64,000 nucleotides of DNA from Syntrophales bacterium (GTDB lineage: Bacteria; Desulfobacterota; Syntrophia; Syntrophales; UBA2210), in contig CAXXKT010000001.1 of the NCBI GenBank assembly GCA_963662405.2, positions 864,001 to 928,000 on the forward strand, written 5' to 3'. Below, in pieces: positions 7,505 through 31,685 of the stretch. Each line of letters starts with the position of its first letter. The first letter of the stretch is position 1. A model generated the notes under the pieces. That model searched no databases and was not told where the DNA came from. It saw nothing but the letters and a program-made list of their open reading frames with translations. Both the position numbers and the translations under genes were made by a program.

Positions 7505-7782
7505 AACAAAAACCCCTCGCGGAAGATTCCTTCTCACGAGGGGTTTTTGAGAACCGCTTATGCCGTTATGTCTCTACGCGGGAGTCACTCAATCCATATG
7601 CTTGGTCTTTATCGGGTGCCAATCACCACGAAGACCCTGTGGATTACCTTTTTATTTAGCTCCGGTAAGATGACTCTTCACGAGCATCGCAGTATCTCGT
7701 CCGTACAATGCTCTTATCGGCATATCTGCCGGATTCTTTATTTCTTGTCAAAAAACTGTTCCCGGTATTTCACCGTTCCCAT
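7505..7782 (-). ncRNA. Candidate structured non-coding RNA (~275 nt), family not recognised
   Basis: Lies between a sigma70 promoter (7789-7817) and a terminator; nested helices GAGTCA/TGACTC, AATCCA/TGGATT, GGTCTT/AAGACC, GGTG/CACC, GAGCAT/ATGCTC, TATGCCG/CGGCATA; the ATG-started ORFs I found on this strand are only 14 and 23 codons or shorter. Confidence 0.6.
7508..7548. terminator. Bidirectional intrinsic terminator
   Basis: AAAAACCCCTCG...CGAGGGGTTTTT perfect 12-bp inverted repeat with T tracts on both strands. Confidence 0.85.
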
Positions 7783-7788
7783 GGTTAT

Positions 7789-7817
7789 ATAATAATGACG
7801 ATGAGGGAGGTTGTCAA
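7789..7817 (-). promoter_or_regulatory. sigma70 promoter TTGACA-17-TATTAT
   Basis: Minus strand TTGACA acctccctcatcgtcat TATTAT. Confidence 0.75.
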
Positions 7818-8325: not shown

Positions 8326-8631
8326 TCACGCTTTCCTTGGCGGTGGTATTGGCCCACGACTCTTCGAGACCACTGTAAATTTGTGGCTCGCTTTGAATTT
8401 GACGACATTCTTTGCTTTTATGTTGATTTTACTGCCGGTTTGTGGATTTCTTCCCGTTCTTGCTTTTCTTTTGACTACTGAAAAAGTTCCAAATCCGACC
8501 AAGCCCATTTTTCCGGTTTGCTTGAGCTCTTTTGTTACATTGGCAATGTATGAATCTAATGCTCTGGTGGCCTCAGCTTTTGTTATTCCCGCATCTCTCG
8601 CCATTGCTTTTATCAATTCGGCTTTTGTCAT
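8326..8631 (-). CDS. hup: HU family DNA-binding protein
   Basis: MTKAELI...GFGTFSV..RKARTGRNPQTG..I.IKAK.VVKFK signature. Confidence 0.93.
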   Translation of the reverse strand: MTKAELIKAMARDAGITKAEATRALDSYIANVTKELKQTGKMGLVGFGTFSVVKRKARTGRNPQTGSKINIKAKNVVKFKASHKFTVVSKSRGPIPPPRKA

Positions 8632-8707
8632 TTTCCCTCACCTGTAAGAGTGTTTTTTGAATATCAACTCTTTCACGGTTGTCATGTATCCAAGTAATTA
8701 CTCCAGA

Positions 8708-8867
8708 ACACAAAAGCCCCATCTCTCTTTGTGAGAAACAGGGCTTTCGATGATCAGATCATAATCCCCCCTTGATTACATCTGTTCACAAGTGCATACA
8801 ATATCTTCAGAGCAAAACATGATAACCTCTTAACTCTGCTATGGTATCTTGTCAAGAAATATTACGG
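8708..8867 (-). ncRNA. Repeat family copy A: TTGACA promoter + putative sRNA with SD-ATG-ATC-TGA minigene + terminator
   Basis: Shares blocks CCGTAAT, CTTGACAAGAT, GGGGATTATGNNCTGATC with 18195-18356 and 19449-19572, and the AGCCCTGTTTCTC...GGGGCTTT hairpin with 18195-18356. Confidence 0.55.
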
Positions 8868-9074
8868 CGTGCCTTTCGAACGGCAAGAATCGATTTTTTC
8901 CTGAAACAGTTATGGGGTGATGCCGAGGGGAATGGCCCTGCGATGCATCCCTTTGCGACGATCAGTACCGAAGCACACATATGGGGCTATATCTCCTTTA
9001 CTTACACGATCGTTATTCCTATACTGGCCCCCGTCGAAAGTCCCGTCTTTTCAAAAAGGAAGACGGGTGCGATT

Positions 9075-10415
9075 ATGCTTGAACAAAGCGTCGTCCTTAC
9101 AGGAACATACGGTATGATTGATTGGTGGTTTGTCTGGAAAATTTTCAAGGGATTGCTGGCCGTAAGCGCGTTGCTCTTTTCCACTGCCGGTGTGTTTGCC
9201 CTCTGGCGGGTGCGCGGAATTCTGCACTGGCAAGGGTCCCTCCGCGACGAGCTCAAAGGCTTGCAAGAGGCGGCCGACGAGTCGCATGGGGCCCGTCGCC
9301 GGGCACTTGAGGTGGTGGTGGAAAACGGTAACCGGATCTGGCGGTCAAATTCCCTCGATCCCGGGGAAATGCTGCGTCTGAGCGCCTATATCCGTTCGAT
9401 TGCCGCCTGCTATCACCCGGACGCGGCAAGGCCCGAGTTGCGCGTCAGCACCGGGAGTTTTCTAGATGCCGCCGGGGTATTTGCCGATCGTCTGGAGCTG
9501 ATTCTGAAGCGGCCGGGGTTTGAACGGCTGCAAAAGGTGCGTATCCGCCATATCCGTCAGTCCTATGAACGGTATCAGCGGGTGAGCCGATACCGGATTG
9601 TCAAGGGTCTTTACCGATACCGTACCGCATTGCGCAGGGTATCTCGATTGCGCCTGATCATCCTGCCCGACCCCTTTTCCCTGCTCGCCTATTTTTCCAA
9701 TCGCCTGATGATGCTGGTTCTCACCCGTTGTTTATTGCTGGATGTGTATCTGTTCACGGGCAAGATGGCTGTCGACACTTACAGTGAAGCCGCCGGGGAG
9801 GACAGGGTTTTTAATCCGGTCGACGCGGTGGAAAAGGCGCTCGAAGCGCTGGGTGACATCAAACCTTCGGAACCGTATCAACGAGACCCGCGGATTCGGG
9901 AGATACGCAATCGGCTGGTGGGGATCAATAACTTTCTCTTTTCCACCTCCGGGTTTCGGGACTGGAAAGCAGCCGTGCGGGAGAGCGCCGAGGTGATTGC
10001 CGCTCACTATTTCCCGGCTGCCGAGCGCCCGCTGGAGGAGGCCGCCATGGGCCCCCTCCTGTATTGCTGTCAGGACTGGATCAGGACGATTTCCGAAACC
10101 AGAAAAATTCCCATCGTGAAACAGCTCCATCGGGTACGGCTGGAATCACTGTATAATATAAAATCCATCACCGAATTCGCGCTTTCGAGCCAGGCGCTCG
10201 TGTTCGCCAAAAGGACCCTGGATGTGTATCGCTGGATGAAATGGCCGCTCAGGATTTACCGCTGGGTGAAAAGGACGTCGCCGTTGAAAATCGCCATTGA
10301 TACGGGCTGGATACTGACAAGAAAAGGGTTCGTGAATGTCGCGTTACGCTACACCTTTGACACCGCCTGCAGGGAACTGGACGCGGTGTATCGCCAATCC
10401 CGGACAGAGCGATGA
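9075..10415 (+). CDS. Hypothetical membrane-anchored protein with internal domain duplication
   Basis: Long ORF; N-terminal TM segment; IAACYHPDAARP...LQKVRI repeated as IAAHYFPAAERP...LHRVRL. Start uncertain (9075 or 9114). Confidence 0.7.
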   Translation: MLEQSVVLTGTYGMIDWWFVWKIFKGLLAVSALLFSTAGVFALWRVRGILHWQGSLRDELKGLQEAADESHGARRRALEVVVENGNRIWRSNSLDPGEMLRLSAYIRSIAACYHPDAARPELRVSTGSFLDAAGVFADRLELILKRPGFERLQKVRIRHIRQSYERYQRVSRYRIVKGLYRYRTALRRVSRLRLIILPDPFSLLAYFSNRLMMLVLTRCLLLDVYLFTGKMAVDTYSEAAGEDRVFNPVDAVEKALEALGDIKPSEPYQRDPRIREIRNRLVGINNFLFSTSGFRDWKAAVRESAEVIAAHYFPAAERPLEEAAMGPLLYCCQDWIRTISETRKIPIVKQLHRVRLESLYNIKSITEFALSSQALVFAKRTLDVYRWMKWPLRIYRWVKRTSPLKIAIDTGWILTRKGFVNVALRYTFDTACRELDAVYRQSRTER

Positions 10416-10581
10416 TTCCGTCACGTCTGTAACCGGTTGAACTCCCCTTCCATACAGCAATGTCATGCGGGTCAATACGAATTTTGCATTGCGCCCTCAT
10501 TGTGGTAAAATTCAGCATAATCTATTCGAAAAGCGGAGGGCATCGGGGGAGGATCGTGTAACTTCTTCAAGGAGGTTTGCC

Positions 10582-11094
10582 ATGACTGAAAAACAAGGAG
10601 ATGGAGAGGAGCAGAAAGAGGTCGGCCTGTACGAGAAATTGGCTTTACGGTCGAAGGAGCTTATTGAGGAAGCGCGAGAGAAAACAGCCGGGACGGCAGA
10701 GGCGGCCATTGAGAAGGCAAAGGCGGAGATGGTTGCTGCGGGTGAGTTCGGGAGTGAGCAGGGAGAGCGGTTCAAGAATTTTCTGATACGTGATCTCCAG
10801 ATCGCCAGGGATGCCGCTTTGAAAATGGGAGAAACGGCCCGGGAGATGATCGAGCCCCATCGGGTAACGGCAGGTATGCAGAGCTCACTGGCCAGGATTC
10901 TGGACATCGTCGGCAGCACGTTGGAGGAGTGGGGAAGCAAGCTTGAATCGGGGCTGGATTACAAAACGGGGGAGATAACAACCCCGGGAACCCTGACGTG
11001 CAAGGAATGCGGAAACAGCATAAAGATGAGCAATACCGGACGTATCCCGCCCTGCCATAAATGCAAGGGAACAAAATTCAGAAAATCGTACTAG
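10582..11094 (+). CDS. Zinc-ribbon-containing protein (DUF1451-like)
   Basis: YKTGEITTPGTLTCKECG...IPPCHKCKGTKF; SD AAGGAGG. Confidence 0.85.
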   Translation: MTEKQGDGEEQKEVGLYEKLALRSKELIEEAREKTAGTAEAAIEKAKAEMVAAGEFGSEQGERFKNFLIRDLQIARDAALKMGETAREMIEPHRVTAGMQSSLARILDIVGSTLEEWGSKLESGLDYKTGEITTPGTLTCKECGNSIKMSNTGRIPPCHKCKGTKFRKSY

Positions 11095-11203
11095 CGTACC
11101 GCGTCTGACACGGTGCTGCCTGTTGTGTGCGGTGGTGCGATAGGCGATGTTTCATGCCCCCCTCCCTTTCTTTGTTCCGGGAATTTCCGGTCCACCAGTG
11201 GGC

Positions 11204-12325
11204 TCATCTTCTTTTCCTCTTGAAGGCGAACATGGTATTCAGGAGGTCTCCCACCGCCCCGCATTCCAGGCCAAAGGGGAGATATCCCGCGTAGCCGAGG
11301 AGGGGCATCTCGAAGATCCGGAAGCGGTGGACGAAAGGGATACTGTATTCCCACTGTGGAATACTGTGGTAGTTCCACATCTCCCAGAAGAGGCCGCAGA
11401 TGAGGGCGGCGAAGGCCAGTGAGGCCGCACGGGACCAGTCTCCCCGCGCGAGGGGGGAGAAGATCTGCTCTCTCCTGGCGAGGGCCTGGAGGGTGACGAG
11501 GCACAGGAGGGGTGAGACCCAGATGAACGGGAAGAGGATGTCGGGGAAGAGTCCCAGGGCAAACAGGGAGGCCGCGACGAGGATCAGGACCGCTCCGGCC
11601 GTTGTCCGGGGTTGTGCCGGCCGGACGGGGGCAAAATTCCCGTACGCCTGTCTGATGAAAGGGAACGATCCGATCAGTTCCGCCGTGCTGAGGACGGCGG
11701 GGAGGACGGTGGAGAAGCAGGCCGTGGCGAACAAGACGTACTGCCAGGGGCCGAAGGAATCGATCCCGACGTAGTGCCAGTTGAGGACAAATCGGTTCAG
11801 GTATTCGAAGAACCACCAGAAGAGGGCGCTCGCGGGGAAGAGGGCCAGGAAGGAGACTGGCCGCTTCCGGACCAGGCAGCTTCCGGTCCTCCGGTATGTG
11901 AGGGCGTTGACGACGACGGCGTAACCGATCCAGAGGAAGGGGAAGGTATAGGGCTGACATGCCGCGAACCAGGGAAAGCGGTTCCACGCCAGTATCCAGG
12001 CCCCGGCGCAGAGTAGGGCGCCCGCGTATCCCCACAATGGAAATTTTCGGTAGCTTTTCTTTTCCCGCTCCCGGCCGGTGCTGATTGTTCGAATGGCACG
12101 CCGGATGAAGGGCAGGAGAGAGACGAGGATCAGGACCCCCAGGCCGATGAATACGCCCCATGAAAAGGGCGCGTGTTCCACGCCGCCCAGGCGGGGCGGA
12201 AAGGCCAGGTAGTACGCGAGGGGTTCGTCCCGCCAGATCATCGCCCCGACGATGGGCAGGACGACGATGATCCCGGCAAGGGCCAGGAAGATGAAACCGG
12301 ATCGGGACAGCCGGTGTTTTTCCAT
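11204..12325 (-). CDS. Conserved hypothetical multi-pass membrane protein
   Basis: Many TM segments; WWFFEYLN...NWHY and FWEMWNY...FEMPLLGYAGYLPF motifs; SD AAGGAGG. Confidence 0.75.
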   Translation of the reverse strand: MEKHRLSRSGFIFLALAGIIVVLPIVGAMIWRDEPLAYYLAFPPRLGGVEHAPFSWGVFIGLGVLILVSLLPFIRRAIRTISTGREREKKSYRKFPLWGYAGALLCAGAWILAWNRFPWFAACQPYTFPFLWIGYAVVVNALTYRRTGSCLVRKRPVSFLALFPASALFWWFFEYLNRFVLNWHYVGIDSFGPWQYVLFATACFSTVLPAVLSTAELIGSFPFIRQAYGNFAPVRPAQPRTTAGAVLILVAASLFALGLFPDILFPFIWVSPLLCLVTLQALARREQIFSPLARGDWSRAASLAFAALICGLFWEMWNYHSIPQWEYSIPFVHRFRIFEMPLLGYAGYLPFGLECGAVGDLLNTMFAFKRKRR

Positions 12326-12588
12326 GATGGTTCCCTCCTTCATTTCGCGCGGAAGGGCTTATGGGTACCTCCCCTCTTCCGTTAGCGCCGTTGCGTCCGC
12401 CTGTCAAGGGATATCAAGAGGGTCAAAAGAGAACATCACCAGCCTCTTGCCGATCAATTGAAGAGTGCCCGGATTCTCCCGTAAAATTTTTTTGAGGAAT
12501 GTGGTATATAATCTTGCCGCTTTAAATGATCACAAGGGGCTGGAGCCGGGAGGGACCACCTCCCGGTGGATACGGAAAGGAGATTGCA

Positions 12589-13392
12589 ATGGAAGGTTTT
12601 GGACGTCTGAATGGAAAGGTCGCTATTATTACCGGCGCTGCCAGCGGGATCGGAAAGGCAGCCGCTCTCCTCTTCGCACGGGAGGGCGCAAAACTCGCGC
12701 TGGCCGATGTCAGTGAGGAGGCGCTCAAGGAGGTCGCGCAACTCGTTGTCGACGCGGGGGGCACGGCCGTCATGAAGAAGACGGATGTCTCGAATGAGGA
12801 AGAGGTCAAGGAACTGATCGCCCTCGCCCTCAGCGCCTACGGGGAGGTGCACATCCTCTGCAATAACGCCGGAATCACCGGCGGCCATGAAGGAATTCTC
12901 CCGGAGGACCAGGACGGCGCCAACTGGCAGCGGGTCTTTTCCGTCAATGTCCTGGGGGCCGTGTACGCGATCAAACACATCGCCGCGCATATGAAGGAGC
13001 GGGGAAGCGGCGCCATCGTCAATACGGCCTCGGTCGCGGGAATCCGTGCCGGCGCCGGGACCAACGCCTACAGCGCCAGCAAGGCGGGGGTCATCAGCCT
13101 CACCCAGACGGCGGCCTGCGACCTCGGAAAGTACAATGTCCGTGTCAACGCCGTCTGTCCCGGTCTCATCGAAACGGGGATGACCAAACCGGTCTTCGAT
13201 TACGCCCGTGAGGCGGGGAAAGAAGAGAAGCTGGGGAGCCGCTGTGAGATGCAGCGGTACGGGAAACCGGAGGAGATCGCCGCGGCCATCCTCTTTCTTG
13301 CCAGCGATGACGCGAGCTATATTACCGGGCAGGCGCTCCCGGTGGACGGCGGAAATACCGCGTCGCTCAATCTACCGGGGATGAAATTTTAG
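12589..13392 (+). CDS. SDR family NAD(P)-dependent oxidoreductase
   Basis: TGAASGIG, NNAG, YSASK and VNAVCPG motifs. Confidence 0.93.
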   Translation: MEGFGRLNGKVAIITGAASGIGKAAALLFAREGAKLALADVSEEALKEVAQLVVDAGGTAVMKKTDVSNEEEVKELIALALSAYGEVHILCNNAGITGGHEGILPEDQDGANWQRVFSVNVLGAVYAIKHIAAHMKERGSGAIVNTASVAGIRAGAGTNAYSASKAGVISLTQTAACDLGKYNVRVNAVCPGLIETGMTKPVFDYAREAGKEEKLGSRCEMQRYGKPEEIAAAILFLASDDASYITGQALPVDGGNTASLNLPGMKF

Positions 13393-13498
13393 GCATTCAT
13401 GAGGGAGACGGCCCATGAGAATAGGGGCGTGTCCCTCATCGCTCCGGCAATGAGGTTTCCCCATGAAGGACACCGGCCTATACAACAGGGGTACAACA

Positions 13499-14065
13499 AT
13501 GGAACGGTGCGCCTGGGTGACCAGCGATCCGTTGTATATCCGGTACCATGATCGCGAATGGGGGGTGCCGGTCCATGATGACCGAAAACTCTTCGAGTTC
13601 CTCCTCCTTGAAGGGGCCCAGGCCGGCCTTTCCTGGATCACCATATTAAAAAGGAGAGAAGGGTATCGAAAGGCATTTGCCGGGTTTGATCCGGAAAGGG
13701 TGGCAGGATTTACCCAAAAGGAAATCGACCAACGTCTGAAAGATCCGGGTATCATCCGGAACAGGCTCAAGATCAACGCGGCGGTCACCAATGCCCGGGC
13801 ATTCTTGAAGATACAGGCGGAATTCGGATCGTTTGACGCCTATGCCTGGCGGTTTGTCGACGGGAAACAAAAAGTGAACGCCCATGCCCGAGCGGATACA
13901 ATCCCCGCCACGTCGACGGAATCGGATGCCTTTTCAAGAGACCTGAAACAGCGGGGCTTTAAATTTACCGGATCGACGATTATCTACGCCCACATGCAGG
14001 CCACGGGCATGGTCAACGATCATCTGGTCTCCTGCTTCCGGTACCACGAAGTGATGGAGGTCTGA
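13499..14065 (+). CDS. tag: DNA-3-methyladenine glycosylase I
   Basis: RCAW...YHDREWG...LEGAQAGLSW...GIIRNRLKI...GMVNDHLVSC. Confidence 0.95.
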   Translation: MERCAWVTSDPLYIRYHDREWGVPVHDDRKLFEFLLLEGAQAGLSWITILKRREGYRKAFAGFDPERVAGFTQKEIDQRLKDPGIIRNRLKINAAVTNARAFLKIQAEFGSFDAYAWRFVDGKQKVNAHARADTIPATSTESDAFSRDLKQRGFKFTGSTIIYAHMQATGMVNDHLVSCFRYHEVMEV

Positions 14066-14082
14066 GCCCCTTTTTCGTTGTG

Positions 14083-14105
14083 GCAAAAAGCAAGACCTGA
14101 CCCCA
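14083..14105 (+). repeat. 23-bp REP-like element, left copy of an inverted pair
   Basis: GCAAAAAGCAAGACCTGACCCCA is the exact reverse complement of 18148-18170. Confidence 0.85.
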
Positions 14106-14236
14106 TGGATTTCCCCATGGATTTACAGAAATTCTCATTCTCCATTCCCCTAAAAAACTAGGGACATCCATGATTTCCTGATTTATTCGATTTTTCCCAT
14201 ACGTAATGGTTTGGCGTATCGGTGTGTCCGTGTAAA

Positions 14237-14268
14237 AAAGGTCAGGATCTATTACGATCCTGACCTTT
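14237..14268 (-). terminator. Intrinsic terminator of the IPTL-CTERM gene
   Basis: AAAGGTCAGGATC tattac GATCCTGACCTTT, with T tract on the minus strand. Confidence 0.8.
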
Positions 14269-14297
14269 CTGCCTTCAAGTCGTTTATTTCATGATTG

Positions 14298-14936
14298 CTA
14301 TGCAGTGGTGTGTTTTCTCCTCATAGATACAATCGCAGTTCCAGCCACCAGCAGGGCAAAAAGGATCATGCCCCATTCAGAGAGGGTGGGAATGTTAATC
14401 AGATCCTCGATCACTACGTCATCTACCAACCAAAACCAATCCCAGTCTGGTGCAACATAGTGGAATCTGATCAGTACGCTGGCTTGCCCAATGTAGGCGG
14501 AAAGATTAATACTTACCTGATTCGGCCCGACATCAACTCCATCGTAGTGCAGCAGCGTCGTCCAATTGGTCCCCCCATCTAAGCTGATATCCACATATGC
14601 ATCGTCATAATCGCTTAACGATTCAAAATAATTCTGGAAACGCAAAAAGGGATGCGTCGTCCCTACCAGGCTGAAAGCGGGGGTGAGGAGCGAAGCATCC
14701 ATTGCATCGTAATAGTCCGAGTCCGCATCCGCCGCATAGCCGGATCCGTTCGTATAGTTCGTCTGCCCGGTGGTTGCCGTACTCTCCCAATTGTATGTGC
14801 CGCTGTGTATCACACGGGACCAACCTGTGGGCGGGAAACTCCCCTCAAAATCTTCCTGAAGTATCACTGCGGCGGCGGCGGGGTTGAACCAGAAAAGCTG
14901 AAGAATCAAGACAAGCGCAAAAACTTTCGTTTTCAT
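14298..14936 (-). CDS. Secreted beta-sandwich (MAM/adhesin-like) protein with IPTL-CTERM sorting signal
   Basis: Signal peptide; EDFEGSFPPTGW...LVDDV; C-terminal IPTLSEWGMILFALL...RRK. Confidence 0.9.
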   Translation of the reverse strand: MKTKVFALVLILQLFWFNPAAAAVILQEDFEGSFPPTGWSRVIHSGTYNWESTATTGQTNYTNGSGYAADADSDYYDAMDASLLTPAFSLVGTTHPFLRFQNYFESLSDYDDAYVDISLDGGTNWTTLLHYDGVDVGPNQVSINLSAYIGQASVLIRFHYVAPDWDWFWLVDDVVIEDLINIPTLSEWGMILFALLVAGTAIVSMRRKHTTA

Positions 14937-15217
14937 TAGCGTCCCCCCTTTTAAGCGTTGGGATTTATGCTAAAAAACTCGTTATGCTTGCTGCTTTTCC
15001 TAAAGACAATCATTTGATGATTTCGGGCTACTAAAAAACTCCTTTGGGGTCAAGAAAAAACCACAAAAATTCTCCACAGAAACTTTTTGGTTTCATCTGG
15101 TAGTTGCCATATTTGATCGATTAGTCACTCTCCAGCTTTGTAGGTGTCGTGAATTGCCAAAGGTATGGTATCCGGTCTCAACCTTTCTATCGATTCAGAT
15201 TGTTCAATGTCGAGACC

Positions 15218-15382
15218 TGCCCCTGTTTGTCTACTGAGACAGGAGAGCGTTTTGTATGACGCTGTAGCCCTTTTCTGCCATCCTTTCCTCGATATCTTTG
15301 ATATGCTCCTTCCCCTTCGTCTCTAGGATGGAGGATACGTTGATCTCGCCGATGGGCGATCCGCCGGAATAATGATGGTAAA
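15218..15382 (-). pseudogene. ilvA: Diverged copy of the ilvA 3' end
   Basis: Aligns with about 19646-19811, with substitutions and a small indel. Confidence 0.9.
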
Positions 15383-15569
15383 CGCCCATGCCCGCGCGGA
15401 CAAGATCCCCGCAACCACAAAGGAATCGGATGCCTTTTCAAAGGACCTGAAACAGCGGGGCTTTAAATTTACCGGACCGACCATTATCTACGCCCACATG
15501 CAGGCCACATGCATGGTCAACGATCATCTGCTCTCCTGCTTTCGTTACCACGAAGTGATGGAGGGGTAA
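15378..15569 (+). pseudogene. tag: Copy of the tag 3' end
   Basis: 192 bp colinear with 13874-14065 (VNAHARAD...FRYHEVME). Confidence 0.9.
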
Positions 15570-15623
15570 CGTCCGTTCCTCATAGCTGCTTCCTCCTACC
15601 ATGAATTTATATAGAGTGGTGTA

Positions 15624-15785
15624 TAATCGATTAGTCGATGTTCATGGGAAGGCGGGAGGACTCAGTGCTTCCTGGGCGTTAGAGCCCTCATTTCAGTATG
15701 TCCCAAGCCTCTGTGAACCATAATAGGTTGGTTGGATCATTGAATCCTTGTCACGCTGGAGGATTGGTCTGGAGGCTATGGTTCC
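15624..15785 (+). ncRNA. IS110 bridge RNA (5' hairpin, target-binding loop, donor-binding loop)
   Basis: Hairpin ATCGA/TCGAT 15626-15639; stem-loop 15640-15718 with internal loop carrying TGCTTCCT and TTTCAG; stem-loop 15718-15781 with GGTTGGTT and GGAG. Confidence 0.8.
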
Positions 15786-15818
15786 TGCTTTTCCTTTCAT
15801 TCGTTAGGAGGTGAAGCG

Positions 15819-17021
15819 ATGTCAGGATTAACGGACAGCTTTAATGATTTTGTTGGAATAGATGTTTCCAAAGATAAATTCGACGCCTGCGGAATCACAA
15901 GAGATGCAGCACAGCTCTTCCAGTTTTCCGCGAGCATGGATCGTAAGGGCTTCGATAAGTTGAGGGAACATCTTGCTTCTGTTTCCATTTCGTCCGTTTT
16001 AATCGGGATGGAATCAACAGCATCTTATCATATCAATCTTTTCTCGTACTTGATTTCAGAGGGTTACCGAGTGATCATCATTAATCCTCTGCTGATTTCC
16101 AATTACGTGAAGATGCAGCTCCGGAAAACCAAGACAGATAAGAAGGATGCCGCTGTTATTGCCATGTTTCTTCTTGCACACAGAAATACCCTGAGCCAAC
16201 GATCATATTCTCCTTTGATTTCCGAGCTTCGGGATCTTTCACGTCAGCGGGAGAATCTGGTTGATGAGATGACCGCTCTGAAGATCAACATCAAACGGCT
16301 CCTGAATATCACTTTTCCGGAATTGGAGCATATGACGTTGGTCTTTACGAAGTCTATGCTGAAGCTTCTCCAGCAATACCCATCTGCTGTTGCTCTGAGA
16401 AGTGCGGATCCTATTCAATTGTCCCAGACGCTCATTGCAGATTCCTATGGGCACAAAAGAGAAGCATTTACCGCGGAGTTAATGAAGGCAGCTAGAGCGT
16501 CGGTCGGTACCCACAGTGCTGCGAAGGAAGTCATTCTTAAACAACAGGTGACCTTGCTCCTTCACTTTGAAGAGGACCTGCAAGAGATAACCGGCATATT
16601 AATTGAGATGAGCCGAAATCTGATGGAAGAAGACATAAACATTCTGACTTCCATAAAGGGCATTGGTAACAAAACTGCTGTTAATTTTCTCATTGAGATG
16701 GGGGGCGACATCAATCAGTATGATGATTCCGGGAAGATCATTGCCATGGCGGGCTTAGATCCGGCTGTTTACCAGTCAGGCAAACATGAAGGTAAAGGCA
16801 AGATCACGAAACGAGGGAACCGCCATTTACGGAGAGTCATCTGGATGATGGCAACCAGGGTGATCAACTATAGCGATGTTTTCAAGACTTACTACCTCAA
16901 ACGTAGAAAGGAGGGATTGCCGTATAAGATGGCAGTATTGGCCACCGCTCACAAATTGATCCGTGTCATCTATGCCATGCTGACGCAACGGACAACTTTC
17001 TGCCCACAGATAAATTCATGA
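15819..17021 (+). CDS. IS110 family transposase/recombinase
   Basis: DEDD RuvC-like motifs GIDVSK, MESTASY, KTDKKDA; AGLDPAVYQSGK with the catalytic Ser; KRGNRHLR. Confidence 0.95.
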   Translation: MSGLTDSFNDFVGIDVSKDKFDACGITRDAAQLFQFSASMDRKGFDKLREHLASVSISSVLIGMESTASYHINLFSYLISEGYRVIIINPLLISNYVKMQLRKTKTDKKDAAVIAMFLLAHRNTLSQRSYSPLISELRDLSRQRENLVDEMTALKINIKRLLNITFPELEHMTLVFTKSMLKLLQQYPSAVALRSADPIQLSQTLIADSYGHKREAFTAELMKAARASVGTHSAAKEVILKQQVTLLLHFEEDLQEITGILIEMSRNLMEEDINILTSIKGIGNKTAVNFLIEMGGDINQYDDSGKIIAMAGLDPAVYQSGKHEGKGKITKRGNRHLRRVIWMMATRVINYSDVFKTYYLKRRKEGLPYKMAVLATAHKLIRVIYAMLTQRTTFCPQINS

Positions 17022-17294
17022 TAGTTGACTGAAAGGGAATGTTTCGTAATTTTCGAGGGAATGCCTTCTACAAACAGTATTCATGCTTGGCTGCTGCAAT
17101 TTTTCCCATGTTTCACCAACTTGGTTTTTGGTCTTTTGTACCACAAAGGACCCAATGGTCGAAGTTCAATTATGCTCGATACCATGGTGGAACTTTCTCT
17201 TTTCATTTTTCACTCATTGCAGTAGGATTACACAAAAGTGCGGGGAATAGCCATCCAATATACTAATTGTTAGAAGGCATAAAAGGGAAACAGC

Positions 17295-17639
17295 ATGGAT
17301 AGATCAGAAGCAAAGAAGAATTACAAGCAGTCCAGTCGCCCCATGGGGGTATATAGAATAAGCAATACGCAAAATGGTAAAGCATACATCGGTTTCAGTC
17401 TGGATTTGCAGGCCAAGATTAATAGGCACAAAGCAGAGCTGAAATTTGGAAGCCATAGAAACTCAGAGTTGCTTAATGAATGGAAAACGTTTGGAGAATC
17501 GTCGTTTGAGTTTGAGGTTTTGGATGAACTTGATCTTGATGAAAAATCAAAGGCAGACCCTATTGAAGAATTGAATATCCTCAAGGATATGTGGATTAGC
17601 AAACTCGAGGAAGCTGGAAATGCGGTCGTTTCCATCTAA
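17295..17639 (+). CDS. GIY-YIG nuclease family protein in an integron-type gene cassette
   Basis: GVYRISN..NGKAYIG...RH...FEFEVLDE; preceded by GTTAGAA (17269); stop codon lies inside ATCTAAC (17634-17640). Confidence 0.85.
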   Translation: MDRSEAKKNYKQSSRPMGVYRISNTQNGKAYIGFSLDLQAKINRHKAELKFGSHRNSELLNEWKTFGESSFEFEVLDELDLDEKSKADPIEELNILKDMWISKLEEAGNAVVSI

Positions 17640-17731
17640 CATGCGGCGGATGACCTGCCCCAAGGGGGACAAGTCCATCCGCTGGTTCGGGAGGCGCTAC
17701 GCGCCGACCGAAACAGCTCAGGGCAGCGTCC

Positions 17732-17790
17732 GCTGAACAAGGCTTTTGCAGCGGAGCACAATAGGCGCCCGCTGAAAAGCGGCATTCTAC
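17732..17790 (+). other. Degenerate attC recombination site
   Basis: GCTGAAC ... GCTTTT(G)CAGCGG / CCGCTGAAAAGC with one unpaired G ... ATTCTAC (decayed GTTRRRY). Confidence 0.6.
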
Positions 17791-17921
17791 TACACTTCCA
17801 ACGGTAATTCTCAGTATTCCCCTTTGATCGAAATCATTTGTTAGTAGGTGTCGTGAATTGCCAGAGCTATGGTATCCGGTCTCAACATTTCTATCGATTC
17901 AGGCTGTTAAATGTCGAGACC

Positions 17922-18139
17922 TGCCCCTCTTTGTCTACTGAGACAGGAGGGAGCTTCGTATGACGCTGTAACCCTTCTCTGCCATCCTTTCTTCGATGTC
18001 TTTGATATGCTCCCTCCCCTTCGTCTCCAAGATGAAGGACGCGTTGATCTCGCCGATGGGCGATCCGCCGGAATGATGATGGTGAAAGACTTCCAGGAGA
18101 TTGGCGCCTGTCTCGTGAAATACATGCAGTACGGCCTCG
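17922..18139 (-). pseudogene. ilvA: Near-identical copy of the ilvA 3' end (ACT domain part and stop codon)
   Basis: 218 bp colinear with 19646-19863; about 6 mismatches counted by eye. Confidence 0.93.
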
Positions 18140-18147
18140 TGGTATAT

Positions 18148-18170
18148 TGGGGTCAGGTCTTGCTTTTTGC
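18148..18170 (-). repeat. 23-bp REP-like element, right copy of the inverted pair
   Basis: TGGGGTCAGGTCTTGCTTTTTGC is the reverse complement of 14083-14105. Confidence 0.85.
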
Positions 18171-18194
18171 TATTTCAATTAAAACGACCCTTAA

Positions 18195-18356
18195 AATACA
18201 AAGCCCCGCCTCTCATTGTGAGAAACAGGGCTGTATGGCGATCAGATCATAATCCCCTCGGGTACAGAGGTTCAAAGGCACATGATGAGTTCACGATCGC
18301 ATAGAGTACATTAAACCACTAACGCCATGAGGGTATCTTGTCAAGGGACATTACGG
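18195..18356 (-). ncRNA. Repeat family copy B (promoter + putative sRNA with SD-ATG-ATC-TGA + terminator)
   Basis: See copy A; hairpin AGCCCTGTTTCTCA caa TGAGAGGCGGGGCT followed by TTGTATTTT. Confidence 0.55.
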
Positions 18357-18610
18357 TGGGATGGTCACGGGGGAGTCGTCGCATCCGTCCAGACCCCTTC
18401 TCTTGAGCACCTGTCCCCCAGATTTCCGGAGATTTATGGAACCAATAATCAATGCAATTCTGTTGACTATTATAAGCTCCGAGTAATAAAAGGAGGTGTG
18501 AATAAGACACTGCCGAAAGACTAACAGATACACACAACGCTCGTTTTGGTCATCTGATTCTCGCGTACTTCGCTTAAAAACTTTGTTAGGCTAATAACAA
18601 GGGGGGGATT

Positions 18611-19444
18611 ATGACAGCGAAGAAAAAAACGTTTCATTGGAGAGGGTGGACCACGTTTGTGGTCACCATATCCTTTATCGTAGACACCCTGTCGGGAATT
18701 ATTCTTTACATTGCTCCTCCGGGAAGAATCGCCAACTGGACCAACTGGAAGATCTGGGGGCTTACAAAAGAACAGTGGGGAGCGGTGCACACCATATTCG
18801 GGTATGTACTGCTATTCATTGTGGCTGCCCATCTGTATTTCAATTGGAGGATCTTTGTCAATTTCCTCTGGAACAAGGCAAAAAAGGTTTTGAATCTGAA
18901 GTGGGAGCTGGCCCTGTCCATCGTGGTCTGCCTCGTTATATTCCTTGGATCTATCTGGAATATCTTCCCTTTCAGCACCATCATGGAAATCGGGGAGCAC
19001 TTCAAACAGGGTTGGGAACAAAGCGAGGCAAAAGCGCCGCTGGCACACGCGGAGCTGCTCACCCTTACTGATTTTGCCGAGAGCATCAAGGTGCCGGTGG
19101 AACAAATAACGGAGGTACTGAAATCCCGAGGGTATACCTTCGCGGGCACTCATCAGACCGTCGGGGACATTGCCGAGGCCAATACTGTTTCTCCCAACAA
19201 GCTCTATGAGGATATTAAGGCCGGTGGGGTTAACCCCGTTGCTCCTCAAAACGTTGAGGGCTCCGGGATGGGGAAGAAAACTCTGATGGAAATTTGCGAA
19301 GAACAGGGTTTGTTCCTGGAAAAGGTCCTTTCACGGTTGAAAGAACAGGGTGTTGAGGCCAAACCCGATGATCGCCTGAAAGACCTGGCCACACAACTCG
19401 GGAAGCAGCCTACGGAGATGCTTACTATCCTTCGCGGAGAATAG
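18611..19444 (+). CDS. DUF4405 (cytochrome-b-like) membrane protein with C-terminal repeated helical domains
   Basis: SGIILYIAPPG...WGAVHTIFG...AHLYFNW (two TM His); repeated TL.D/E....V..L...G motif. Confidence 0.8.
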   Translation: MTAKKKTFHWRGWTTFVVTISFIVDTLSGIILYIAPPGRIANWTNWKIWGLTKEQWGAVHTIFGYVLLFIVAAHLYFNWRIFVNFLWNKAKKVLNLKWELALSIVVCLVIFLGSIWNIFPFSTIMEIGEHFKQGWEQSEAKAPLAHAELLTLTDFAESIKVPVEQITEVLKSRGYTFAGTHQTVGDIAEANTVSPNKLYEDIKAGGVNPVAPQNVEGSGMGKKTLMEICEEQGLFLEKVLSRLKEQGVEAKPDDRLKDLATQLGKQPTEMLTILRGE

Positions 19445-19448
19445 AGAT

Positions 19449-19572
19449 GATCAGGCCATAATCCCCCCTCCGGGGATGACGGCTGTCCAGAGGCACATAT
19501 GATGAGTTCAAGCTCAGCAGAGTACGCTAAACCACTAACTCCATTATGATATCTTGTCAAGATATATTACGG
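19449..19572 (-). ncRNA. Repeat family copy C (promoter + SD-ATG-GCC-TGA; terminator missing)
   Basis: Colinear with copy B; includes the 17-bp palindrome ATATCTTG-T-CAAGATAT over the -35. Confidence 0.5.
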
Positions 19573-19658
19573 GGAGAGGTCCAGGGGTGGAATCCGGCTT
19601 CGGCATGTGACGCAGGGAAGCGGCTGCGCGTGTGACTGCCACGCTTGCCCCTCATTGT

Positions 19659-20888
19659 CTACTGAGACAGGAGGGAGCTTCGTATGACGCTGTAACCCTT
19701 CTCTGCCATCCTTTCTTCGATGTCTTTGATATGCTCCCTCCCCTTCGTCTCCAGGATGAAGGATACGTTGATCTCGCCGATGGGCGATCCGCCGGAATAA
19801 TGATGGTGAAAGACTTCCAGGAGATTGGCGCCTGTCTCGTGAAATACGTGCAGTACGGCCTCGAGGGCGCCGGGGATGTCTCTGACCCGTGTCTCAACCT
19901 GCATGATGCGGCCGTCGAACGCGAGCCCCCGGGCGATTATGCGGGAGATGAGCGTGACATCTATATTCCCGCCCGACACAACGGCTACCACCTTTGTGCC
20001 CTCCACACCGGGCACCCGGTTGTTGATAAGGGCCGCTACGGGCGCCGCGCCGGCACCCTCTACCACGATCTTTTCCGTCTCCAGGAGATGGAGGATGGCA
20101 TTGGCGATCTCGTCGTCCGTTACGGTCACGATCTCATCCACATACCGGCTGACGATATCGAGCGTGATCTGCCCAACCCGCTTCACCGTGATACCTTCGG
20201 CGATCCTCGACGCGCCGGGGGCCGTGACAACGGAACCGGCCTCGACCGACCGTTTCATCGAAGGACAGTCTGCCGTCTCGACACCGATGACCCGCACCTG
20301 AGGCCGGATGCTCTTAAGATACAAAGCGATGCCGGAAATCAGGCCGCCTCCTCCGATGGGGACGACAACGGCGTCCAGGTCCTTCGACAGTTCGTTGTTT
20401 ATCAGTTCAACGGCCACCGTTCCCTGGCCCGCAATCACCAGAGGATCTTCGAAGGGATGGATGTAGGTTTTCCCTTCTTTTGCGGCCAGGAGGAGGGAGT
20501 GCTCGTAGGCCTCGTCAAAATTCTCCCCTTCAAGGACCACGGCGGCGCCCCAGTACTGTGTCGACGTCACCTTGACGATCGGTGTATTCCGGGGCATGAC
20601 AATAGTGGCGGGGATGCCGAGCCGTCTTGCATGGCAGGCAAGGCCCTGCGCGTGATTGCCCGCGCTTGCGGCGATGACGCCCCGGCGACGCTCTTTCTCA
20701 TCGAGGGAGAGAAGTTTGTTCAGAGCGCCCCGTTCCTTGAAAGACCCCGTGATCTGGAGATTTTCAAGCTTCATCATGACATCGACGCCGCACCGGTCCG
20801 ACAGCCGTGATGATCGGGTCACGGTTGTCTCGACAATATGGGACCGTATCCTCTCATAGGCCCGCTCCACATCTTCTCTCGTCACCAT
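19659..20888 (-). CDS. ilvA: Threonine ammonia-lyase (medium form with ACT domain)
   Basis: KLENLQITGSFKERGA, ASAGNHAQG, PIGGGGLISG, SGGNID; start taken at MVTRED. Confidence 0.93.
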   Translation of the reverse strand: MVTREDVERAYERIRSHIVETTVTRSSRLSDRCGVDVMMKLENLQITGSFKERGALNKLLSLDEKERRRGVIAASAGNHAQGLACHARRLGIPATIVMPRNTPIVKVTSTQYWGAAVVLEGENFDEAYEHSLLLAAKEGKTYIHPFEDPLVIAGQGTVAVELINNELSKDLDAVVVPIGGGGLISGIALYLKSIRPQVRVIGVETADCPSMKRSVEAGSVVTAPGASRIAEGITVKRVGQITLDIVSRYVDEIVTVTDDEIANAILHLLETEKIVVEGAGAAPVAALINNRVPGVEGTKVVAVVSGGNIDVTLISRIIARGLAFDGRIMQVETRVRDIPGALEAVLHVFHETGANLLEVFHHHYSGGSPIGEINVSFILETKGREHIKDIEERMAEKGYSVIRSSLLSQ

Positions 20889-30519: not shown

Positions 30520-31017
30520 ATGAAAGAGAAAGCCCTGGTCAGTATCGTCATGGGGAGTGATTCCGACCTCTCCGTTATGGAGAAGGCGGCAACCGTTCTC
30601 GGGGAGTTTGATATCTCCCATGAATGGTTCCTGACATCCGCTCACCGCTCACCGGAGCGGACGACGCGATTTGCTGCCCAGGCCGCCGAGCGTGGCATCA
30701 AGGTCATTATCGTGGGGGCGGGGATGGCGGCGCACCTCGCCGGTGTTATCGCGTCACAGACACCCCTGCCCGTCATCGGTGTCCCGCTCGATTCATCCGC
30801 CTCTTCCCTGGGTGGGTTCGACGCGCTTCTCTCAACGGTTCAGATGCCGGGAGGAATCCCCGTGGCCACCATGGCAATCGGGGAGGCGGGGGCAAAAAAC
30901 GCCGCCCTGATGGCGATTCGGATCCTTGCCCTGAGTGATGAGAATCTCCTTAAAGAGTTGGGTGCCTATACGAAGAAGATGGCCGATACGGTCGAAAGAA
31001 AACAGCAGGAGCTGTAA
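30520..31017 (+). CDS. purE: N5-CAIR mutase
   Basis: MGSDSD, SAHRSP, AGMAAHL, VQMPGGIPVAT. Confidence 0.97.
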   Translation: MKEKALVSIVMGSDSDLSVMEKAATVLGEFDISHEWFLTSAHRSPERTTRFAAQAAERGIKVIIVGAGMAAHLAGVIASQTPLPVIGVPLDSSASSLGGFDALLSTVQMPGGIPVATMAIGEAGAKNAALMAIRILALSDENLLKELGAYTKKMADTVERKQQEL

Positions 31018-31046
31018 CTTCCTGTCCGCATGCATGGCGGCACGCT

Positions 31047-31685
31047 ATGACCCTTGTTATCACACCAGATCCGGACGGATCATCAATCGTGACGGCGGTG
31101 AGAATCGTCGCGAGGGGAGGGGTTATCGCCTATCCCACCGAGACCTTTTACGGCCTGGGGGCGGACATCCGAAACGACCAAGCCGTGGAGAGACTCTATG
31201 CCATCAAGGGAAGGAGCTTCGATAAGCCCATCTCCATCATCATCGGGAGCCACGACGATCTGCCGCGTTTTGCAGAGACGATCACCCCTTCGGCTGAGAT
31301 TCTCATGAAACAGTTCTGGCCGGGGGGGGTCACCCTGCTCTTTCAGGCATCCCCGGCTATCCCCAAGAGATTAACGGCGGGGACCGGGAAGGTCGGCATC
31401 CGCCTGTCCAGTGATCCGGTCGCTACAATCCTTGCCAAAAATCTGGCCGGTGCCATTACCACCACGAGCGCCAACCGGTCCGGAGAAAGAGAATGCGCCT
31501 CGGCCCGAGAGGTCATCGAGAATATTGGAGGAGAGGTGGATGCGGTGCTTGACTGGGGAAGGACACCGGGAGGGGCGGGGTCCACCATCGTCGATACCAC
31601 TATTGACCCGCCGGTGATCATCCGGGAAGGCATCGTACCATCGGCGGAGATATCCCGATGGATCGGGATCGTCCGGGGATCATAG
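31047..31685 (+). CDS. tsaC: L-threonylcarbamoyladenylate synthase (YrdC/Sua5 family)
   Basis: YPTETFYGL, IKGR, FWPG, TSANRSG, STIVD. Confidence 0.93.
   Translation: MTLVITPDPDGSSIVTAVRIVARGGVIAYPTETFYGLGADIRNDQAVERLYAIKGRSFDKPISIIIGSHDDLPRFAETITPSAEILMKQFWPGGVTLLFQASPAIPKRLTAGTGKVGIRLSSDPVATILAKNLAGAITTTSANRSGERECASAREVIENIGGEVDAVLDWGRTPGGAGSTIVDTTIDPPVIIREGIVPSAEISRWIGIVRGS

Follow-up and report, generated by a model that had tools for sequence, protein, structure and literature searches.

A stretch of 64,000 nucleotides from the genome of a Syntrophales bacterium (assembly GCA_963662405.2, contig CAXXKT010000001.1, positions 864,001 to 928,000; this whole stretch is hereafter called the window) carries on its minus strand three diverged, colinear copies, A, B and C, of a short leader-like element. 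All three copies were confirmed at the positions at which a preliminary description of this DNA had placed them, and every motif coordinate given there was recovered. Each unit of the family is composed of what reads as a -35 box, a weak -10 box, a leader of ~115 nt, a Shine–Dalgarno (SD) sequence with a mini-open reading frame (mini-ORF; start, 1–5 codons, stop) and an intrinsic terminator. The features in the window are as follows:

8845..8867, minus strand: promoter block of copy A, a 23-mer consisting of an A/T-rich upstream part and the -35 box TTGACA (8850-8855)
8827..8832, minus strand: weak -10 box of copy A, TAAGAG, after a 17-nt spacer
8763..8773, minus strand: SD and spacer of copy A (anti-SD duplex -10.8 kcal/mol)
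8754..8762, minus strand: mini-ORF of copy A, ATG-ATC-TGA
8750..8789, minus strand: putative, weakly supported hairpin H1 of copy A, which would take both the start and the stop codon into its pairing and leave some of the SD in its loop; core subfamily only
8707..8747, minus strand: predicted intrinsic terminator of copy A, a G-U rich hairpin (8713-8745) with an interrupted U tract
8326..8631, minus strand: HU-family gene (PF00216, E 1e-29), 80 bp beyond copy A and the first gene that would be read through from it
18334..18356, minus strand: promoter block (23-mer) of copy B, TTGACA at 18339-18344
18316-18321, minus strand: weak -10 box of copy B, TAGTGG
18242..18258, minus strand: SD and mini-ORF of copy B, ATG-ATC-TGA (18242-18250)
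18194..18232, minus strand: predicted terminator of copy B, hairpin (18200-18232) and U tract
19550..19572, minus strand: promoter block (23-mer) of copy C, TTGACA at 19555-19560
19532-19537, minus strand: weak -10 box of copy C, TAGTGG
19446..19470, minus strand: SD and mini-ORF of copy C, ATG-GCC-TGA (19451-19459)
18611..19444, plus strand: DUF4405 gene between copies C and B, its 3' end abutting the broken end of copy C

The first strong terminator pair of copy A lies 18 nt past the start codon and 9 nt past the stop. Hairpins A and B had been described as strand-specific, and they do fold far better on the minus strand than on the plus strand (-21.3 vs -14.0 kcal/mol for A and -22.4 vs -13.6 kcal/mol for B). 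Copy C has no terminator and ends at ~19446, 5 nt past its stop; the fold z-scores of the whole leader are -4.4 for A, -4.2 for B and -0.2 for C. Beyond the terminator of copy B there are a REP-like (repetitive extragenic palindrome-like) arm and a duplicated 3' piece of a threonine dehydratase gene, and no intact gene. Per window, 2e-7 exact matches to the 19 fixed bases of the promoter would be expected, and 1e-4 to the 15 of the minigene, which excludes a chance origin of the shared motifs. The scan against Rfam 15 that had been proposed earlier matched no family, giving 0 hits in the window, only E>0.1 at copy A and only a tRNA among ten related loci.

Size, range and divergence of the family

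The element had been presented as a three-copy family, whereas an iterated nhmmer search retrieved 60 matches at E<1e-4 in the 3.8-Mb genome. A covariance model of the 3' 96 nt, also proposed earlier, gave 55 matches at E<0.001 in the same genome, and in an order-wide model search 39 of 101 genomes were positive, the signal being strong in three families and weak outside them. By BLAST, 17 of 24 genomes of the same family carry the element, as against 0 of 16 genomes that belong to other families in this order. At the level of the phylum, 16 of 141 genomes had matches, of which the weak ones may include plain terminators. The exact core pattern occurs at 25 loci in named records, mostly bins of Syntrophales, Syntrophaceae or Deltaproteobacteria, with three labelled otherwise. 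Viral contigs yielded two pattern matches, one of which was inspected, and no carrier was seen there. Identity of a copy to its nearest relative within the genome ranges from 57 to 96%, no two copies being identical over the 3' 96 nt. The leading-strand share, for which the origin was placed roughly, is uninformative (31 of 43 copies on contig C1, vs 1146 of 1861 genes). At C1:433090-437469, four divergent copies stand in tandem and alternate with single genes (leader-gene-leader-gene); these have a good -10 box and a different SD spacer, and keep ATG-GYC-TGA.

Promoter, mini-ORF and terminator

The -35 box is nearly invariant, each TTGACA position being kept in 51-56 of 56 copies from this genome. 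Only the first two bases of the -10 box are kept (T in 48 and A in 49 of the 56 copies; the final T in 7), so that the weakness of this box remarked on earlier is a property of the family. The start codon follows ~85-108 bp past the -35 box. A further upstream block of ~75 bp is common to 56 copies, and in it a near-palindromic TTGAAAGTCTCA motif is conserved ~12-25 bp before the -35 box; it is a candidate activator site that could offset the weak -10. A reading of the GAACAGCTGTAAC segment as a possible LexA, Rex or CRP site, prompted by their consensus boxes, was set aside because divergent members lose it. A 322-aa transposase that its sequence assigns to the IS110 type (IS, insertion sequence) is present three times, at C1:158562-159530, 305373-306341 and 1415794-1416762. 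Each of the three insertions uses the same CT core, which lies ~60 bp before the -35 region of an element; the upstream block is an IS110 target. As judged from sequence, the proposal of a promoter-driven, structured RNA unit of ~115 nt is supported.

To describe the mini-ORF we used 142 anchored copies from this genome and its relatives, leaving out the 25 loci chosen by the exact ATG/TGA pattern, matches below 18 bits and two copies whose arm was unusable. A start codon is present in 133 of the 142 (ATG 118, GTG 9, TTG 6) at 14-21 nt before the first strong terminator pair, the distance being 17-19 nt in 120 of the 133, and the SD reaches -4 kcal/mol or better in 127 of them. A stop codon lies ahead of the stem in 106 of the 133 start-bearing copies; TGA, TAA and TAG are all used, and the frame spans 2 codons in 87 copies, 4 in 13, 5 in 4 and 1 in 2. 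Within this genome, 41 of 56 anchored copies have a start and an in-frame stop at codon 3, while 4 further copies are unanchored. The stop, which had been called fixed, is thus not so across the family. Since start codons and stop codons are swapped at fixed spacing, selection seems to act on translation and not on a peptide or a DNA palindrome. The mini-ORF accordingly looks selected for translation, and the SD-ATG looks like a working initiation site, not the mimic of a ribosome-binding site that had been suggested. A selenocysteine reading of TGA with a selenocysteine insertion sequence (SECIS), considered by eye, was dropped because TAA, TAG and shifted stops occur.

Because the family models themselves contain the ATG, a hairpin-only search was made in one genome. 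An SD and start at the family spacing accompany 40 of the 43 known and 2 of the 3 new matches, compared with 14 of 178 ordinary gene-end terminators. Among 23 weak matches from other orders, there are 10 in which an SD and a complete frame of 1-5 codons precede the stem (stop TGA in 3, TAA in 5, TAG in 2); the remaining 13 have no start, no convincing SD or no early stop.

In the family as a whole, the hairpin folds better in the element sense (minus strand in the window) in 49 of 51 copies, and the terminator stem is 93% paired across the 51, mostly via one-sided changes. The U tract is often interrupted (TTTTGTTTT in 15 of 51 copies; 8 T of 8 in only 1). H1, which is 77% paired, would be able to bury the start and stop codons in the core subfamily. 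Its support is modest: pair-keeping transitions amount to 76 of 732 vs 15 of 253 pair-breaking ones (median z -1.0), RNAalifold does not predict it on the 51-copy alignment, and divergent members that keep the mini-ORF have no H1. A 5' antiterminator formed by long-range pairing is seen in some single folds and is missing from the consensus. The idea that the element is itself an attC site was rejected, H1 being too short and without core sites.

H1 is of consequence for one alternative, namely that the terminated ~115-nt RNA is itself the product, a multicopy small RNA (sRNA) titrating ribosomes, initiation or release factors, or CsrA through the GGA in the H1 loop. CsrB and RsmZ are multicopy sponge sRNAs of this kind, with their own promoter and terminator, SD-like GGA and several GGA hairpin loops per RNA. 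The element resembles them in copy number, in having its own promoter and terminator at each copy, and in the SD-like GGA; in addition, csrA is present in the genome, H1 can show a purine-rich loop, termination is probably the default, and two-codon minigenes can drain tRNA in trans according to the available text of PMC8708949. On the other side, the predicted folds show one purine-rich GGA region per RNA, unlike CsrB/RsmZ, the element differs from those sRNAs in its conserved translatable ORF, its strong same-strand cargo bias and its lack of an Rfam match, and H1, on which the CsrA version depends, has the weak statistics given above. The genes that follow the copies tell further against a free sRNA.

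Downstream genes, integrons and mobility

The next ORF after the 60 copies of this genome is on the same strand in 51 cases, on the opposite strand in 7 and missing in 2, compared with 999 same-strand cases among 1754 control gap ends. For copies with a terminator the share is 48 of 55, and in relatives the next gene is on the same strand in 95 cases, opposite in 4 and missing in 6 (95 of 105 scored; 7 further flanks were too short). The differing contexts of A, B and C pointed out earlier are real but atypical, B and C being among the 9 of 60 copies without a same-strand gene next. Several of the exceptions in orientation come down to IS insertions, to mis-calls or to truncation, as in copy C. 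Only 18 of 126 spacers between terminator and gene (median 134 nt) contain a promoter-like site of their own, vs 280 of 1090 controls taken over a length of 200 nt, the element spacers being the shorter. An IS1595-family transposase gene stands directly behind the U tract at C1:441985 and C3:212049, in opposite orientations.

First genes in this genome include Gabija GajA, PD-Lambda-5_A, a Thoeris-like TIR protein (ThsB) and restriction nucleases, and also cyclic di-GMP enzymes, surface proteins and HU (copy A). At E<=1e-15, PADLOC matched 9 of 27 proteins of this genome, hand-picked from 59, and 15 of 91 first ORFs in relatives (91 of 99 submitted), as against 1 of 48 genes of the window. The defence cargo of relatives includes SIR2, HamA, BrxA, DrmD, Cas3, a DRT-type reverse transcriptase and type I-III methyltransferases.

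Both integron integrases of the genome have a divergent family member upstream. They are encoded at C1:2211990-2212934 and 30608-31553, co-oriented with their own attI, which lies downstream of intI, and with their cassettes; the latter gene is split into two frames, and the former is parted from its attI by an IS. In 4 of the 21 intI loci examined, a hairpin leader precedes the gene by 159-162 bp, and one of these leaders has no start codon; attI lies downstream of intI in three of these four, and an IS intervenes in the fourth. The element and the intI leader are 68% identical over 153 bp. Two copies are followed, with no integrase between, by a 165-bp segment 93-94% identical to the intI2 attI region. 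Integrase-less cassette arrays are known as CALIN. Segments resembling attI come after ~10 of the 60 copies, and attC-like sites lie downstream of 7 of the 60 vs 3 of 150 random windows, in a scan at the looser setting that recovered the positive control; neither was seen for A, B or C.

Because a same-strand gene follows the copies, and because intI genes and attI arrays are headed as well, a cis-acting leader is favoured over a free-standing decoy or sponge RNA, another of the earlier suggestions. The strong cargo bias and the fixed 159-162 bp before intI leave an sRNA product improbable.

A 1.15-kb islet that begins with one of the copies adjoins the 3' end of a tRNA-Gln gene, and four relatives have no islet at this site. 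In two relatives the orthologue of the gene upstream of copy A has no element beside it. Mobility of at least two sites is shown by sequence comparison. The ~60 dispersed copies, the absence from orthologous sites in relatives, the kinship to the intI leader, the junctions with intI-less attI segments and the G-U/G-T-rich hairpin might all be expected if the element were a non-autonomous mobile element or recombination end, similar to miniature inverted-repeat transposable elements (MITEs), REPs or IS200, with the hairpin as a DNA recognition structure and the SD-ATG as the relic of a deleted transposase or integrase gene. However, no second end or inverted repeat was seen, and no paired ends are evident in the flank listings of the copies; inspection of 61 upstream ORFs revealed unrelated neighbours and no common carrier gene or recombinase. 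The nearest-copy identities speak against a recent burst. Moreover, a relic would not keep the start-codon class, the stop swaps and the spacing. We therefore regard this explanation as very improbable. The more specific candidate of a relic of a RAYT/Y1 (REP-associated tyrosine) transposase was rejected: there are 13 Y1 matches in the genome and 0 among 53 downstream ORFs scanned, and REP-like half-sites follow only a few copies.

Proposed ribosome-dependent attenuation and its relation to known systems

On balance, and with considerable reserve, the element is probably a portable, ampC-like attenuator in which a ribosome that has reached the stop of the mini-ORF would keep the terminator from pairing at its base; of the three options offered in the preliminary description, the portable attenuator fits best. 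The module would begin with a sigma70-type promoter and a leader of ~75 nt, continue with a translated mini-ORF and end in an intrinsic terminator, and it would stand at the head of horizontally acquired genes. By default, polymerase would stop at the terminator and release the ~115-nt RNA. Timely loading of a ribosome on the SD and start, followed by at least one elongation step, would bring the ribosome to the stop codon, where it would cover the foot of the terminator stem and prevent the hairpin from closing, and polymerase would read through into the downstream gene. Expression of the cargo would in this way be tied to the speed of initiation and to dwell time at the stop. Transcription, termination, translation, ribosome-driven read-through and the signal sensed are all things that we infer from sequence.

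The leading edge of a ribosome was taken to lie near +16 at initiation and near +19 at the stop, and these assumed footprints were used in folding. With pairing blocked from the AUG of copy A, the hairpin is intact when the block extends to +16 (-19.7), has lost two basal pairs at +19 (-15.5) and collapses at +22 (-6.3). Ordinary terminators within the first 12 nt after a stop codon are few in this genome (24 of 172, by crude calls), and Rho is encoded, both as expected if transcription and translation are coupled. In Escherichia coli, a terminator a few bases past a stop is almost fully repressed by the ribosome, as reported in the available text of PMC4824070.

Several points weigh against this interpretation. 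The strength of the promoter is uncertain, 49 of 56 copies being without the final T of the -10. The stop is missing before the stem in 27 of 133 copies, so that further copies depart from the ATG/TGA pattern in respect of the stop, and hardly in respect of the start, which is missing in 9 of 142. In copy B a block to +19 costs only 0.9 kcal/mol, and the distance from start to stem is 19-20 nt in about ten two-codon copies. Defence genes are a minority of the cargo (76 of 91 first ORFs in relatives, many of them truncated, are without a PADLOC match). The copies are related to each other, and family counts are thus non-independent events; in addition, the models were trained on ATG-bearing copies and the match lists lean that way, the hairpin-only search being exempt from this but limited to one genome. 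Finally, according to PMC4824070, termination at tR2 in E. coli fell by only ~10% when a start site stood 30 bp ahead of it, since a ribosome needs 100-200 nt or a pause to reach the polymerase. Given the small effect at tR2, a pause or a slow polymerase would be needed.

Several of the same facts could be accommodated by a portable promoter with a leaky terminator that sets a low constant output of foreign, often toxic genes. The mini-ORF would then do no more than load a ribosome, whose presence protects the untranslated leader against Rho or decay, and its stop would avoid non-stop complexes on the terminated RNA. The frequently interrupted U tracts and the Rho gene are in keeping with this, as are, within what the available text of PMC4824070 covers, the findings in E. 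coli that early start sites hardly weaken a terminator and that a start without a stop before the terminator destabilised the RNA. Likewise, two-codon minigenes in axe-txe raise downstream expression in cis, possibly via mRNA stability (PMC8708949, available text). What such a fixed output leaves unexplained is the 17-19 nt spacing from start to stem, which is kept across families despite diverging flanks, and we consider it a rather unlikely explanation. A version involving a road-block to a 5' exonuclease was removed, as no RNase J match was found in the genome.

The nearest known system is the attenuator of E. coli ampC, which likewise has a sigma70 promoter, a start with a near-immediate stop (ATG-TAA) and an intrinsic terminator before the regulated gene, and which reportedly mediates growth-rate control (Jaurin et al. 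1981). It differs in its 41-nt leader without SD or sense codon and in being a single locus, whereas the element has a strong SD, 1-5 codons, a ~115-nt leader and dozens of dispersed copies with unrelated cargo. The ampC stem begins ~10 nt after the A of the AUG, so that an initiating ribosome covers it; in the element the stem lies 17-19 nt from the start. Mutations in the ampC hairpin raise ampC transcription (PMC9241650, available text). By analogy, the family would work like an ampC-type attenuator without being a member of the ampC locus family. In pyrBI-type attenuation too, a ribosome close behind the polymerase bars terminator folding without an antiterminator hairpin, and the differences there are a long leader peptide and a UTP-sensitive pause (both points from the available text of PMC4824070). 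The element has a 1-5 codon ORF and no evident metabolite link; no pause signal turned up, though no pause analysis was made. A further two-codon regulatory minigene is that of lambda bar. The minigenes of axe-txe and LEE1 ler share with the element a two-codon leader ORF, SD-less or SD-led, and action in cis on the next gene. They act on translation or mRNA stability of the adjacent cistron, and none is described before a terminator or as a dispersed repeat in the available text of PMC8708949. Similarly, the integron promoter Pc with ORF-11 of attI1 is a portable promoter and short ORF upstream of attI that serves promoterless cassettes, but ORF-11 spans attI and acts by translational coupling, with no terminator, as far as the available text of PMC8876359 goes. 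The element lies 55-200 bp before attI, also heads co-oriented intI, and is mostly without attI.

The family is apparently undescribed: no description was found in the literature searched, subscription papers and the supplements of RNA-motif screens being outside its scope, and the latter could list the element. Each ribosome-occlusion attenuator known so far sits at a single locus and is tuned to one operon; the present design is dispersed in 50-60 copies per genome and travels with foreign genes. It is possible, if doubtful, that the copies form a translation-sensing regulon for acquired DNA, with one leader at dozens of loci across Desulfobacterota acting as a one-translocation switch. A ribosome parked at the stop, through slow release or recycling or through fast initiation, would open anti-phage systems, integron integrases and cassette arrays together, e.g. 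when infection or stress disturbs translation termination. If so, the transcription of acquired genes would be linked to the state of translation, and the cell would domesticate potentially toxic acquisitions, such as defence systems and cassettes, without a regulator for each. The natural series of mini-ORF lengths, stops and spacings would also allow the contest between a newly loaded ribosome and intrinsic termination to be studied, and might supply a compact synthetic part.

As regards the surroundings of the copies in the window, the Pfam match of the HU protein (8326-8631) is confined to residues 1-85, its tail being unusual, basic and proline-rich, and a low-GC orphan gene of 138 aa lies 7 bp past the HU gene. 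On the minus strand, 7530-7790 may be a separate small RNA or leader, with an 11/12 sigma70 promoter at 7789-7817 followed by ~230 nt without a long ORF and by a strong hairpin with a U tract near 7510-7550. A 400-aa IS110-family transposase is encoded at 15819-17021. There are serial partial duplications at 15137-15564, 17841-18142, 19646-19866 and 13874-14060: the threonine dehydratase gene has its 3' end repeated at two places (221 bp at 97% and 165 bp at 92% identity) and a methyladenine glycosylase gene at one (187 bp at 90%), and the REP-like arm borders the duplication next to copy B.

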